A stretch of DNA of 62,545 nucleotides, the filler included, from Globobulimina sp. (lineage: Eukaryota), in assembly GCA_003354225.1 (NCBI GenBank). It is 37 parts of 37 records of this genome, joined end to end, with 100 filler letters (N's around TTAATTAATTAA, not from the genome) between each part and the next. Parts side by side here need not be neighbours in the genome. Positions count along the whole stretch, not along the records: positions 16,941 to 18,534 come from PIVH01014382.1; 36 more parts are not named here. The stretch is one strand, 5' to 3'. The notes under the pieces were generated by a model that worked only from the letters and a program-made list of their open reading frames with translations, did no database searches and was not told where the DNA came from. Made by a program: the position numbers and the translations under genes. This document shows, in pieces, positions 11,872 through 33,776 of this stretch. Each line of letters opens with the position of its first letter. Position 1 is the first letter of the stretch.

Positions 11872-13452
11872 TCACTTTTTCTTATTTTTCATTCTTTTTT
11901 TAAGTGCTTTTGCTCGGTCTCTTTCTTTTTTTTTCTGATATTTATCTTTCACCAAATCTCTCCGCAACTGCATCTTCAAATATTTCTCAATCAATTCCGA
12001 TGTGTTACTCTCTTCATTCACACTCTCTTTTGATTGCGACCAGAAACATTTACACCAACTCGTCTTTGTCTTTGCCTCTTCTTTCAATTTCAGCGCCAAA
12101 TCATGCTTCAACTTCTTTTCATTTTTATTCAATGACTTCAAATGTTGCCTCAATTGCTTGGTCCCACTCATTTTATGATTATTTTCCACCTCAATCGGTT
12201 GATAATTATGCACATCATACACATCCAAGTCCCATTCATCCAATTTCTCGTCGGCTGACTCGTAAATCAACGCCGATTTACTCACCACCAATCCCTGTCC
12301 ATTCCCACCGTGTACTATCTGCACATCCTCTTCTTTATTCTCATACAAATCACTTAATTCCTGCTCCCGGTCCGTCGAAATAGTGTTTATCGTCGCTCTG
12401 CGGATCGAATGTAATGCAAACTCAGTCTCTTTCATTTGAGACTCCATCTTTTGATGCAAACTCAACAAGTTCTCCAACAAACTGTTCTGCTGAATGCCAT
12501 AACCATTATTCCGCCCAAACGACAAACTCGAACCGCCCGATGCCTGATGGCTGGGACTGCCGTCCTGTACAACATCGTAATCATCAGAGCCGCCCGACGC
12601 TGTATGCACAGTGCCGCGCCGATGCCCGTCCAATGGCAGCGGCTTAAACCCTGGAAAGTTGCTCTGATATTGGCCTAATACGCTCTGCAAATCGCGTATT
12701 CTATGCTTTCCATCGTAAAACTCGCTTTCATTCTGGTTCAATTCATCCAGTAACTCCGCAATCCGATTGTTACACAGTTCCAATTCCAAGTTCTTTCCAT
12801 CGATTTTCAAGTGCAATTCTATATTTTCCCCACATTCCCGATCCAATTTATCCCGGTATTCGTTCAATTGACTCACATATTCATTCAATTCCAAATCACA
12901 TTCGTCCTCCGAACAGCTGGAACCATCCGCATTACGCAGAGAATTGGCTAAATTATTACCCATATCATCGCACTCAGAATCCGAGCCCCATTCCAGTATC
13001 TCATCACTTTCATCGTCCCCAGTTCCAGCCATCACCGTCTGTTCCAGTTCCACCACAAAGCTCTTTGCGCCCTTCTTATTTTCCATCATCTTCTCATCGG
13101 ACACAGCCTCCTCGACTTCATACATAACCACCGAGTCCTGGCTATCGTCCTTAGCCTCCAGCGCCGCCACATTCTGTTTATTCGCCCTCCGCCGCGTAGT
13201 CGCATTCGCCTTCTTGAGCATCGCCACCCGTTGCCGCAATTTGCCATTCTCCCTCTCCAGCTCTTTCACCCTCCGCTTGAGGCCAATGATGCTCTTTTCC
13301 TCGTTGATCTTGGCCTTATTCTTCACCTTCTTGGCAGTCGACGCAAACCGCAGCGTCCGAATGGTCTCCCCGCGGTTATAGATGTGCGGCGACACCGTCA
13401 CCAACATGATCGTCTTGCTGTTGCCGCCCAAGCTGTCCTTCAATATATGCGT
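11872..13452 (-). CDS. Kinesin (end of motor domain plus coiled-coil tail)
   Basis: LKDSLGGNSKTIMLVTVSP...ETIRTLRFASTAKKVKN. Confidence 0.93.
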   Translation of the reverse strand, partial: THILKDSLGGNSKTIMLVTVSPHIYNRGETIRTLRFASTAKKVKNKAKINEEKSIIGLKRRVKELERENGKLRQRVAMLKKANATTRRRANKQNVAALEAKDDSQDSVVMYEVEEAVSDEKMMENKKGAKSFVVELEQTVMAGTGDDESDEILEWGSDSECDDMGNNLANSLRNADGSSCSEDECDLELNEYVSQLNEYRDKLDRECGENIELHLKIDGKNLELELCNNRIAELLDELNQNESEFYDGKHRIRDLQSVLGQYQSNFPGFKPLPLDGHRRGTVHTASGGSDDYDVVQDGSPSHQASGGSSLSFGRNNGYGIQQNSLLENLLSLHQKMESQMKETEFALHSIRRATINTISTDREQELSDLYENKEEDVQIVHGGNGQGLVVSKSALIYESADEKLDEWDLDVYDVHNYQPIEVENNHKMSGTKQLRQHLKSLNKNEKKLKHDLALKLKEEAKTKTSWCKCFWSQSKESVNEESNTSELIEKYLKMQLRRDLVKDKYQKKKERDRAKALKKRMKNKKK

Positions 13453-16687: not shown

Positions 16688-16940
16688 AAATTGTCAAATT
16701 TAATTTAAACACTGCCTGCCTATTTTCCGTAACCCAGAACCCGATATATTTGAAAAATCAACAAAAGAGCAAAAATGGAAAAAAGAAAATTTAGGAAATT
16801 TCAAATACTGTAACTAAAGAAGATTAAAAGTAAAAAGTTTNNNNNNNNNNNNNNNNNNNNNNNNNNNNNNNNNNNNNNNNNNNNTTAATTAATTAANNNN
16901 NNNNNNNNNNNNNNNNNNNNNNNNNNNNNNNNNNNNNNNN

Positions 16941-17928
16941 TAATTAAGGACACTAATGAGAAGCAATTTTGCGTGAGTCGAGCGAGTAAATATTGATATT
17001 TTAAGTGTCCGGACAATTTATTTTAGCTGGCGACACTATTGATTAGCGCGTCGAAAGTTCACATTGAACCATACCTCATAGCCTCCTTAAAGGAGGTAAT
17101 TGAAGCTCCATTATGTAGTCATACATTTTAGTAATCAGCTTGGTCTCTGTACGTACATTGTGGTTTAGTTTTTTCGTGAGTAGTACATATGTAGTAGTGG
17201 CCTGTTGGTTAGTGCAGGTGTATTGAAAACTAGTAATTAGAAAGTTAAGTTAAAAATAAACCCAATATTGAGATAAAGAAAAATTAAACATTTATGCAAA
17301 TTCTATCCCTGTAGTAAAATAATATTACTAAGATAAAAAGAGTCCTATCTATTTGAATTTAGGTTTCGGTCCTTTAAAGTCTATACCCAATTCGGCACTC
17401 TTGATAGTGGACCTCATCAGTAGACTTATTAGGTTTTACCTAATAATTAATTAGCTAATTAAGGACACTAATGAGAAGCAATTTTGCGTGAGTCGAGCGA
17501 GTAAATATCGATAATTTAAGTGGCCGGACAATTTATTTTAGCTGGCGACACTATTGATTAGCGCGTCGAAAGTTAACATTGAACCATGCCTCATAGCCTC
17601 CTTAAAGGAGGTAATTGAAGCTCCACGATGTAGTCGTACATTTTAGTAATCAGCTTGTCTCTGTACGTACATTGTGGTTTAGTTTTTTCATGACTAGTAC
17701 GTATGTAGTAGTGGCCTGTCGGTTAGTGCAGGTGTATTGTAAACTAGTAATTAGAAAGTTAAGTTAAAAATAAACCCAATATTGAGATAAAGAAAAATTA
17801 AACATTTATGCAAATTCTCCGGCCACTTAAAATATCAATATTGTCCGGCCACATAAAATTGTCCGGCCACTTAAAATATCAATATTTACTTGCTCGACTC
17901 ACGCAAAATTGCTTCTCATTAGTGTCCT
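16941..17928. repeat. ~515-bp tandem repeat (16941-17455; partial copy 17456-17818) plus inverted copy of the unit end (~17855-17928)
   Basis: The sequence restarts at 17456 with scattered substitutions. The reverse complement of AGGACACTAATGAG...GGACAATT follows a stuttered junction. Confidence 0.93.
17355..17427 (-). ncRNA. Hammerhead ribozyme, non-circularly permuted strand order
   Basis: Minus strand reads AAGTCTA-CTGATGA-GGTCC-(15 nt)-GAATTGG-GTA-TAGACTT-TAAA-GGACC-GAAA-CCTAAATTC. All core nucleotides and three helices are present. Confidence 0.82.
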
Positions 17929-18384
17929 CGGATAAAATAAAATGCTCCTAGAGTACAAAACTTTATTCTTTTGCGGAGTTGGTATGGGGTTTAGGGCGCT
18001 GTAGATAGCCAATATTATTAAGGATTTGGTTGCGTTTTTGAGTTACAATTGTCAATATTGCGTATTTTAGTCATAACATTAACGATTCCATCATGTTTTT
18101 GCATTAGTTTCAGCATCCGGCTAGGTTAGCTCATGCACTTTTTGTAAAAGTTAGCCTCAGATAAAATAAAATGTTCCTAGAGTACAAAACTTTATTCTTT
18201 TGCGGAGTTGTATGGGGTTTAGGGTGCTGTAGATAGCCAATATTATTAAGGATTTGGTTGCGTTTTTGAGTTACAATTGTCAATATTGAGGATTTTAGTC
18301 ATAACATTAACGATTCCATCATGTTTTTGCATTAGTTTCAGCATCCGGCTATAGGTTAGCTCATGCACTTTTTGTAAAAGTTAG
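17929..18384. repeat. ~229-bp tandem repeat, two diverged copies
   Basis: Copies at 17929-18154 and 18158-18384, both starting C(G/A)GATAAAATAAAATG. Confidence 0.92.
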
Positions 18385-18778
18385 GTAACAGTCATTGCAT
18401 CGGATAAAATAAATCCCACAATTCGATGATATTAGATTTTATTTTCCGATTCGGGGGCGCCGCCGTTAGGCGGCGGGGGGGGGCCCCCCAAACGAGTTGC
18501 GAACGCGTTCTGGAACGCGTTTTGAAACGCGTCGNNNNNNNNNNNNNNNNNNNNNNNNNNNNNNNNNNNNNNNNNNNNTTAATTAATTAANNNNNNNNNN
18601 NNNNNNNNNNNNNNNNNNNNNNNNNNNNNNNNNNATTCTGATTTGTTCTCGGACCGTTTATAAATAATCTCCCTCGGTTTCTTGAAAAAGTATCCCTCGG
18701 CTTCGCCTCGCAAATAACTTTTTCAGAAACCTCAGGGACATTATACAATAAATAATAATATCATACATTCCATTCCAT

Positions 18779-25410: not shown

Positions 25411-27004
25411 CAGTGAGTCTATGCTTATTTCGATACGACACACATTTAGCGTCAATACATAATGATATAGATTTTACTGACGCAAAAAACGTTATGTCTT
25501 CATCATTAGGTACTGTATGGATTGGATTAAGGTATGATTTCACGACAGGCTGGGCATGGACAGATGATACAGACTGGGATTATGGCATAGATATCGACGG
25601 AGATGACGGGAATGGGCCATGGAAAAATGGTGAACCGAATGACATTAATGATGATTGTGTTCGTATATATAATGCATCTAATTATGAATGGAGCGACACG
25701 CACTGTGATGATAAATATTTCCCATTGTGTGCTTATCCTAAACCCTTGAAATTGAAAACTGATTATGTTCGAGCACCGACTGCAGTTTCTCGTATTGGTG
25801 TTATTGATATATTGGACGACATTTACATTGAATTTGATATAATATTTAAATCATTTCCACCAAATGGGTCAGGATCGATATTATATTTTGGAAATAACGA
25901 TGATGAACAATACCCAGCGATTATTATTGATACTGCCACGAATTCAGTATGTAATAATATATTCCTTTATATTTCTTATATCATTGTACATATTATTAAT
26001 AAACAACAGCTTGAGACCATAGTATCTAAAATACCAACCCACAATTTTAATTTTGCAAATATTGCATTAAACTCATCATATCATTATACCTTTCATTTAA
26101 CACAAAATTATTTACAAATAACATTGAATTCTGATCATGATTCAGTTCCTATCATTCGTTATAACCAAACTGTGAGTTCACATTCTATTTTAATGCAACG
26201 TGATATATACATAAATAATCCATGGAATTCCAATTTAGATCAAGTATTTGAAAGAGAAATAACAAATTTGTCTGTTTCAACATCAAATCAATATAACACA
26301 GATGCTTCCAATGAATTTAATTATATTTGTGATGAAAGTCGTTGGGAGATCCTTTCGCCAATATATTGGGATTTTGATAAAACTGACACAGACTGTACTC
26401 TCAGTCAAACTGATTCATCCTATGGTTATTATCCGGCATGGATAGGTGGTTCGGATGCAAGCTCTAAAGACTGGACAGATTATAAGGTAGAAACTAAATT
26501 TATAATCAATAATGTCAAACAAAATAATGATCCACAGATTGGATTATGGTTACGGCCACATGAGAGCCAGGGTATTTTGCATGGATATTGGATATATACC
26601 CTGGACTATACTCAAGATATTGAACATACGTTGCGAGTTGAAGTGAAGGATAATGTATTTGATATTTATTGGAATAATGGTTATAATTATACTAATGGTT
26701 CCGTTGGGTTAGCTACAAAATGGGCTGCAGTCACATTCACATCACTAAGAGTTACATTTGAAGCGAATGGAGAATTATTTACTGCGGCACCAACAACGGA
26801 TCCAACAAATAATCCCACTCTATTTCCAACAAATCCTACAGTCATTCCGACTAATTATCCATCCGATATTCCAACTAATAATCCAATCACAAGTCCGCCA
26901 ACAACAAGTCCGCCAACAACAAGTCCGCCAACATATAATCCAACATCACCACCAACAAATGCAGAATCCACATCAGTGACATTATCCCAATCACCATCAC
27001 AAGC
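25411..27004 (+). CDS. C-type lectin plus beta-sandwich domains and Pro/Thr stalk (partial)
   Basis: HLASIHN, WIGL, EPND, WSDTHC and PT/SPPT repeats. Paralogue of 4363-4982 (IGVIDILD.IYI.F). Confidence 0.88.
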
Positions 27005-32183: not shown

Positions 32184-33776
32184 AAGAATAAATTTTGCTT
32201 TCCATAGTTTTGAGTGAAATTTAAATTCTAAATCAGTATTCCATGCATTACAAAGCCAACTTTGTCCGCCTTGAATATGTTTACAGCGAATTCTTATTTC
32301 TTCAAATTTTTTACAATTTGGCTTATTAAGTTCATTCAATACATGCAATAAATCTGTTTTATATTCATTTGTAGTCGCATTAATTGCTATTTTTGTACAG
32401 TTTTTAAACAAACCACCAATGCAATTAAATAATACCAAATTTGAAATATTTTCATCAATTATTAATTTTTGTAATTTTTTATAATAATGATTCATTAAAA
32501 TCAAATCAATTATAATTATTTCTTTATTCACACACAAAAAATGAAACATTTCTTGTAAATATTTCTTACTTTCATCCAGATTATTTTCTACTGTCTGTGA
32601 TGTTATTTCTTTTATAATCAATGAATTTAAAAACCTATAATGATATTTTGTAATTGTTTGTGCCTCAATTGATGATATTTTCGTTGCAGTTAACATCAAA
32701 TCAAAATAATGAAAGGCAGCAAAATAATTTGCAAAATTTGTATTATTTTTTAATATTCGTATTGTACACAATTTTAATTTCCATTTTGTTGCTTGAAAAA
32801 GTATCTCATTTTCTCCACTAAAATTACTTACAAATTTACATTCAAATCCTTTGATATTACATTGATTATTATTATTCCCACTTAATTCCAATATAATTCC
32901 ATCCCCCATATCTTGAATAAATCTTACTGCGATTTCTATGTGTTTACTAATTGATGTTGGTGCTCTAAATCGAATGTGTAATGATGATGCAACAATATAC
33001 TTACAACCAATATAAAATTTATCCGATTTATTAATAATGTTTCCGTACAAATGTACAGTTTCTCTCAGGACTTTACACCAATTCCTAAACTCTCGATGTC
33101 TATTTTTGATGGAAAACATCATTTCATTGGATCGAAGAGCTGAAAACGTTTTATTTAATTCTAACGATAATCTTTCATAATCAACATATAATATGACTGA
33201 CAAAATATTTTCAAACTTAATATTTGAATTTTTCTCAATTTTAAAATGATTATCACCAATAAAATCGGCTTTTAATGCTTTACAATATTTTGTATTTATC
33301 ATTTTATTTGTTTTTTCAATTACAATTTCATATTCATTTTTATTCAATGTACAAATTGTGTTATTCATTATTTCCTCTTTAATGTCTCTGTATTTCCCCT
33401 CAACATATTCCGATTTATTTTTATAATACTTCCAATAATAATATTTTACTCCGCAATCAAAATCTCTCTGTGCTTCCATCATTTTCTTTGCAGGATTTAA
33501 TGATAAACGCTTTGTTTTGTGCGTGGGTTTACCAATTTGTATATTATATTTATGTGTATTTAATCTATTAAATTCATGTACATTTTTTAATATTTTTCTT
33601 TGTGATAAAATATTTTCTTTTAACACAGCAAATGGAATATCGATGCAATAATCATCTTCAATATTCATTGCTGTGTTTGATGTTTTGTTAATATTTTTTA
33701 TTCGATCGCGATATCCGTAATCATAAATATGTAATAAATAACAATGGATTGAATTCAACACATTTATCCAAAAACA
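32184..33776 (-). CDS. Large protein with ART-like central domain (partial)
   Basis: Contig-spanning ORF with FYIG, PTSISKHIEIAVRF, GIILEL and SNFSGENEILF. Confidence 0.6.

Follow-up and report, generated by a model that had tools for sequence, protein, structure and literature searches.

A candidate hammerhead ribozyme of C-S-G strand order in a small repeated module of the Globobulimina genome

The hammerhead ribozyme can be divided into three blocks, C (containing CUGAnGA), G (containing GAAA) and S (containing the cleavage site), so that types I, II and III have the orders CGS, GSC and SCG, respectively (PMC10085705). Eckert, Friedrich, Weinberg and Weinberg (Nucleic Acids Res 2023; PMC10085705) described natural non-circular permutations of the hammerhead, and this is the one published case series of a non-circular permutation of a structured RNA. 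In their account, type SGC has many examples, mostly from metatranscriptomes, while type CSG comprises "two similar sequences" from metagenome DNA only, with no host, and there is one doubtful GCS candidate, from a bacterium. The two type-CSG RNAs, CSG-1 and CSG-2, cleave in vitro at the expected site, slowly (kobs of 0.004 and 0.026 per min), to give products of 48/49 and 29 nt. The authors state that none of their RNAs lies in the genome of a known organism except the doubtful bacterial candidate, and they call the evidence for type CSG weaker because its covariation is "modest" (PMC10085705). A helix joining stems I and II "appears" in types SGC and CSG and is required for cleavage in type SGC, which makes this helper helix a usual feature of type CSG rather than a stated requirement (PMC10085705). 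A literature search that covered sources outside the subscription journals found no later type-CSG or type-SGC hammerhead in a named eukaryote.

The window analyzed here, meaning the whole 62.5-kb stretch of Globobulimina sp. DNA, consists of 37 unplaced contigs of 1592-1594 bp, ordered by size, so that only positions 16941-18534 are genomic context for the motif described below. The original prediction had placed a hammerhead with the non-circular order A-C-B on the minus strand at 17427-17355, and this strand reads exactly as it said in segments, linkers and coordinates (Table 1). Blocks C, S and G follow one another 5' to 3', each uninterrupted, and this order is the published type CSG of Eckert et al. 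(PMC10085705). The prediction had itself cautioned that rare non-circular permutations had been reported, and it was right to do so; since the C-S-G permutation is already published (PMC10085705), a strong claim to novelty falls.

All three helices of the predicted fold were reproduced, with the lengths, the closing G-C pair of stem II and the G-U pair and bulge of stem III that had been foreseen. Stem I (17427-17421 with 17383-17377) has seven perfect pairs out of seven, and stem II (17413-17409 with 17372-17368) has five pairs closing on G10.1-C11.1 (G17413-C17368). Stem III starts from A15.1-U16.1 (A17364-U17385) and has six contiguous pairs, one of them U-G; beyond these an A is bulged and three further pairs follow, for a total of 9 bp by direct reading. 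The core is standard throughout: C3 to A9 is CUGAUGA, with a stem I strand immediately before it and a stem II strand immediately after, G10.1 pairs with C11.1, G12, A13 and A14 are present, A15.1 pairs with U16.1, and H17 is A. The GAAA box lies between stems II and III (GGACC-GAAA-CC at 17372-17362), and the expected GUA cleavage triplet at 17386-17384 is followed by the stem I strand UAGACUU. By analogy with the hammerhead core and with CSG-1 and CSG-2 (PMC10085705), the cut is predicted between A17384 and U17383.

Table 1. Positions of the candidate ribozyme and of neighboring features, counted along the window
Feature	Positions	Strand	Content	Basis
Block C	17409..17427	minus	AAGUCUA 17427-17421, CUGAUGA 17420-17414, GGUCC 17413-17409	direct reading, descriptor scan
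C-to-S linker	17394..17408	minus	ACUAUCAAGAGUGCC, 15 nt	direct reading, alignment with L009
Block S	17377..17393	minus	GAAUUGG-GUA-UAGACUU; stem III strand GAAUUGGGU, stem I 3' strand UAGACUU	
UAAA linker	17373..17376	minus	connects the distal ends of stems I and II	direct reading
Block G	17355..17372	minus	GGACC-GAAA-CCUAAAUUC; stem III strand (A)CCUAAAUUC	direct reading, alignment with L009
Upstream hairpin	17428..17444	minus	AUUAGGU-AAA-ACCUAAU; site block of the alternative RF00008 alignment, GUA 17439-17437	
3'-flank element	17340..17350	minus	AGAUAGGACUC; common to L009 as AGAUAGGUCUC	
Repeat copy B	16941..17304		364 bp; reaches the contig end	96-97% identity to 17456-17818
Repeat copy A	17456..17818		last 84 nt also inverted at 17845-17928	summed depth 25-94 over 17460-17560 in run X1

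We also scanned the window with a descriptor of our own that allows all six block orders on both strands, with at least 5, 4 and 4 contiguous bp in stems I, II and III, respectively. The sole match in the 62.5 kb was this locus, in the order CSG and with stems of 7, 5 and 6 contiguous pairs. Searches of the window with nhmmer, using a three-row profile, and with blastn-short found only the locus itself. Thus, the window holds a single C-S-G unit rather than units set head to tail, and this one copy stands alone in an unplaced contig that is rich in repeats.

The G+C content is about 31%. In the contig, a 364-bp repeat lies in direct orientation on both sides of the 151-nt segment that holds the ribozyme. 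It resembles a foldback or MITE-like element whose terminal inverted repeats are long. The same contig has a tandem repeat at 17926-18384 (period 228, 2.0 copies, 96% identity). The spacers that join the contigs are 100 nt long (44 N, TTAATTAATTAA, 44 N; for example, 16841-16940), and features should not be followed from one side of a spacer to the other. A weak tRNA match falls in the neighboring contig (18782-18858, minus strand; RF00005, 30.2 bits, gathering score 29), and long open frames in the other contigs carry eukaryotic Pfam domains, including kinesin, C-type lectin, PEX11, ubiquitin-conjugating enzyme, PPR repeats and reverse transcriptase. Four stretches, at 11872-13452, 25411-27004, 32184-33776 and 57816-59161, are open nearly throughout, with kinesin, C-type lectin and UQ_con plus ubiquitin plus SAM among their domains. 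Such intron-free coding stretches, unusual by the standard of animal genomes, may be long exons, retrocopies or transcript-derived sequence.

Copies of the motif were sought in Logan contigs of sequencing run X1, which is from the same organism as the window (0.52 of the contig's sampled words), placed on 17200-17560 at 80% likeness. We found 25 contigs in this interval, nine at 99% identity or more, six at 95-99%, five at 90-95% and five below 90%. The summed depth over 17356-17433 was 28-61, compared to 6.8-9.1 in the adjoining unique flanks on the low-coordinate side. Within this region the depth was 48-61 at 17356-17394 and 28-38 at 17395-17433, and the S-G half appears to be commoner than the C half in this run. 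One contig is identical to the window over 17360-17430, and three variant contigs span from 17358 or 17360 to 17425 or 17426 with 6, 6 and 4 differences, so that the module of about 70 nt exists in X1 as several variants, 91-100% identical, with differing flanks. Loose ends at 17361, 17393, 17424 and 17430 lead into unrelated sequence. The different flanks and the contig ends together place the limits of the repeated unit approximately at the limits of the ribozyme, and a module of about ribozyme size is thus present several times in this genome.

The listed differences among the X1 contigs all fall at 17386-17405, that is, in the linker and outer stem III. The listing rule passed only differences that lie no closer than 31 nt to the end of a contig, and with variant contigs of 68-78 nt this clustering is partly an artifact of the rule; we rejected the idea that variation is confined to the linker. 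In two contigs, U replaces G17388 of the RNA, so that a G-U pair in stem III would become U-U in the absence of a compensating change. Some X1 copies may therefore carry damaging changes, with not all of the 4 to 6 differences placed. Runs X2 (0.06 of the contig's words), X3 and X4 gave zero contigs on 17200-17560, a result that weighs neither way.

A distant relative was found in metagenome contigs, which we scanned with a pattern that fixes the core bases and the UAAAG bridge and leaves all stem positions free. The scan gave nine loci, among them two pairs with the same sequence and one locus on the same record as a match in a viral contig (L001). Only one of the nine, L009, forms all stems, with 6, 5 and 5 contiguous pairs. 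L009 is a whole contig of 1624 nt with a tandem repeat at 1274-1530 (period 114, 2.3 copies), so that its ribozyme units, unlike that of the window, stand head to tail, in the layout S-G, spacer, C, linker, S-G, spacer, C, linker, S-G. Its stem I (ACCGUG/CACGGU), stem II (GGCAC/GUGCC) and triplet (GUC) are unlike those of the window, and its stem III sequence varies even between its own two units. The S-G hairpin of L009 has a long stem III (12 positions, one mismatch) and a loop that runs from H17 through one strand of stem I, UAAA and one strand of stem II to GAA. A second hairpin, closed by a 10-bp helix (CUUCGGAUGG/CCAUCCGAAG), has block C as its loop; these block C hairpins lie at 1341-1380 and 1455-1494. 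The 10-bp helix, which thus encloses block C, corresponds to the helix joining stems I and II of Eckert et al. (PMC10085705). An inner GUGCU/GGCAC pairing in L009 rivals the active fold in the nested minimum-free-energy (MFE) model and could act as an on/off switch.

Agreement between the window and L009 extends beyond the searched pattern. The bridge after stem I is UAAA in units 0 and 1 of L009 and UCAU in unit 2, but agreement in UAAA is not independent because the search pattern fixed these bases. The linker, by comparison, is identical to that of L009 unit 1 at 10 of 15 positions, none of them fixed by the pattern, and the bases outside the pattern that also agree are AGAUAGGNCUC. Downstream of block G, both sequences share AGAUAGG[A/U]CUC (L009 1423-1433), and a similar CAGAUAGG occurs in the loose end of a paralogous X1 contig at 17361. 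The GAUAG of this 3'-flank element is able to pair with CUAUC of the linker, and we found no clear pairing partner for AGAUAGG[A/U]CUC that is common to all the family members compared. The L009 and window contigs have no similarity outside the motif. A match between the product sizes of L009 (49 plus 29 nt for unit 1 from G1349, and 46 nt for unit 2) and those of CSG-1 and CSG-2 was dropped as numerology.

We then aligned the window with the two full L009 units in register (alignment A2, three rows) and counted the pseudoknotted structure. In this alignment 46 of 48 cells pair (95.8%) and 7 of 16 pairs change on both sides, four in stem I, two in stem II and one in stem III, although the three rows come from only two independent loci, two rows being neighbors in one array, L009 was chosen among the pattern matches because it pairs, and the structure scored was derived from the window. 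None of 500 shuffles reached the observed percentage of pairing, number of both-side changes or covariation score, and sliding the partners by 1 to 3 columns lowered pairing to 25-40% and left no both-side changes. The helices of the hammerhead core thus covary between the window and L009, in three rows from two loci, one of them selected for pairing. The 25 other pattern matches (24 distinct records) served as controls, and none of them folds, with stem I reaching 0-3 bp: eight are other metagenome loci (stem I of 0-2 bp), one is viral and 16 are prokaryotic (stem I of at most 3 bp). The matches in viral contigs, L001 and L027, lie in coding-like DNA and were rejected as chance, and one of the scans of viral contigs gave no match. 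The original prediction had named genomic homologues and helix covariation among its checks, and both were found, as multiple copies in X1 and as compensatory changes that keep the three helices in L009.

The window copy differs from L009 at its 5' side. L009 has the helper helix, whereas in the window no upstream sequence is complementary to the linker, so that the helix lacks its 5' strand. However, the first part of the linker, CUAUCAAGAG, resembles the 3' strand of the 10-bp helix of L009, with agreement at 6 of 10 positions. The window copy is therefore complete in core and helices but may be trimmed at its 5' edge, and the upstream hairpin (Table 1) could be what is left of an S-G unit that lost its interior.

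These observations bear on several other explanations of the locus. At gathering thresholds, the sole Rfam match in the whole window is the tRNA mentioned above, and no hammerhead is reported. Under permissive settings Hammerhead_3 (RF00008) matches 17444-17358 with a score of 22.8 bits, where the gathering score is 48.5 (E of 0.019 in a 501-nt search). This weak match shows that the core, stem II and the GAAA-stem III strand look hammerhead-like to an independent model, and it raises the question of whether the locus is an ordinary type III hammerhead with its site upstream (AUUAGGUA, 17444-17437), an insertion of about 35-36 nt in loop 2 and an internal S block that is there incidentally. 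The RF00008 alignment has just this form and includes a 6-bp stem III (UUAGGU/ACCUAA), but its score is far under the gathering score, its stem I is in effect unformed (one deletion, and several pairs that cmscan marks as non-standard, with A-A at 1.1/2.1), and the order of the strands in the window is not a circular permutation of type III. The internal S block, in contrast, gives seven perfect pairs in stem I and lengthens stem III, and L009 keeps the C-S-G helices with no such upstream site and no Rfam hammerhead match even at E of 10 or less. We regard a type III identity as having a very low probability.

Another possibility is that short motifs came together by chance in repetitive, AT-rich DNA and that the RNA has no function. 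A match in any order occurred in 11 of 400 and in 64 of 3000 dinucleotide-shuffled windows; among the 65 matches of the larger set, five have at least 18 bp in total, one has at least 7, 5 and 6 bp in the respective stems, and three are in CSG order. An equally paired motif is thus expected about once per 600 shuffled windows (5 in 3000). This is rare for one window, but a large eukaryotic genome, or many windows scanned together, would be expected to include such matches, so that chance survives the sequence of the locus alone. The stability of the nested MFE fold is unexceptional (z of -1.69 and -0.52), and in that fold the upstream hairpin occupies the first 2 nt of stem I; since an unremarkable nested fold is expected of a pseudoknotted structure, this helps neither way. 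It is the comparative evidence, from the genomic copies and from L009, that sets chance aside. The module is multi-copy with limits matching those of the motif, and an unrelated contig repeats this architecture in tandem, with linker and flank sequence in common and with all three stems showing compensatory changes; none of the 25 other pattern matches folds. Chance is very unlikely in the light of these comparisons. We give more credence, while still thinking it unlikely, to the view that the family is real and the window copy is a dead relic, cut on its 5' side at about 17428-17430, deprived of the helper helix and no longer capable of a useful rate of cleavage. The missing partner for CUAUCAAGAG, present around block C in L009, would fit a relic, as would the end of homology between copies at 17424-17430, the setting of the copy, an unplaced contig of 1594 bp in which another repeat flanks it on both sides, and the possible deleted S-G remnant just upstream. 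Against this, the core nucleotides and all three helices are intact, exact and near-exact copies persist in the genome, and the UAAA bridge may by itself keep stems I and II together. Minimal hammerheads, moreover, still cleave in the absence of tertiary contacts, at a lower rate.

The reading that we prefer is that minus strand 17427-17355 is probably a member of a conserved type-CSG family and is predicted to be competent for cleavage. Membership in the family is supported by the motif, its multi-copy status, the helix covariation with L009 and a published precedent that cleaves in vitro. In the proposed fold, the adjoining S and G blocks would form a hairpin closed by stem III, and the loop of this hairpin would be made of the stem I 3' strand, the 4-nt UAAA bridge and the stem II 3' strand. 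Block C, 15 nt upstream, would clamp onto the loop through stems I and II, which would arise by loop-loop pairing, and the clamping would produce a normal three-helix catalytic core on a pseudoknotted backbone. The earlier suggestion that stems I and II are linked through the 4-nt linker fits a remark on the short linker of type SGC (PMC10085705). Minus-strand RNA, if transcribed, would be cut after A17384, leaving a 2',3'-cyclic phosphate there and a 5'-OH on U17383.

The element would then act as a small repeat that carries a ribozyme. Where units stand in tandem, as in L009, multimeric transcripts would be cut once per unit to lengths of about 114 nt, as in retrozymes and satellite transcripts. 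Because the clamp could reach the hairpin from either side in an array or a circle, types CSG and SGC would be one unit read from different starts. A broader proposal, which we put forward tentatively and consider unlikely, is that permuted hammerheads, besides being parts of RNA replicons of unknown hosts, are also DNA-encoded eukaryotic repeat modules made of a substrate hairpin (S-UAAA-G) and a separable catalytic clamp (block C) that meet by loop-loop pairing. As two independent pieces, they would leave the clamp free to reach the hairpin from the upstream side (CSG), from the downstream side (SGC) or in trans. If this two-piece proposal is true, the genome would be one with more S-G hairpins than clamps, and it would offer a first host, a genomic life style and a natural trans-cleaving hammerhead system.

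If the type-CSG assignment is upheld, the locus and its relatives would supply independent covariation for the CSG order, an organism in which to study it and a simple relation between types CSG and SGC. What would be new is a eukaryotic genomic home for such a ribozyme and a tandem array that links the two types. The Rfam searches of the window and L009 also illustrate that annotation with standard covariance models misses such elements.

Among known systems, the module resembles the retrozymes and hammerhead satellite repeats of animals and plants, which likewise are genomic, non-coding, repeated DNA that bears hammerheads, and the tandem units of L009 would yield unit-length RNAs as retrozymes do. 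Known retrozymes have, to our knowledge, type I or type III hammerheads and longer units. The window copy differs from them in that it is solitary, with no tandem array.

The resemblance to type SGC and the HRIMA-1 motif (PMC10085705) lies in the order of the blocks, since CSG, SGC and GCS are equivalent on a circle or in a tandem array, in the short bridge of 3-4 nt from stem I to stem II, and in the helix around block C, which L009 also has. An S-G hairpin of the L009 array can be assigned the C block before it or the one after it. HRIMA-1 differs in coming almost only from metatranscriptomes, presumably from circular RNA replicons, and in its fixed 5-bp stem I (PMC10085705), whereas the window has block C upstream only and a 7-bp stem I. 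The closest likeness is to CSG-1 and CSG-2 of the same paper, with which the window shares the block order C-S-G, the conserved core, the two core pseudoknots and a DNA-encoded origin. The predicted 3' product of the window (17383-17355) is 29 nt long if the RNA ends at 17355, as is the 3' product of CSG-1 and CSG-2 (PMC10085705), an agreement that is only a lead, because the published constructs may include flanks. The window copy differs from CSG-1 and CSG-2 in having no helix that joins stems I and II, and, whereas those are two metagenome sequences with no host (PMC10085705), the window copy belongs to a small repeat family in an assembled eukaryotic genome.
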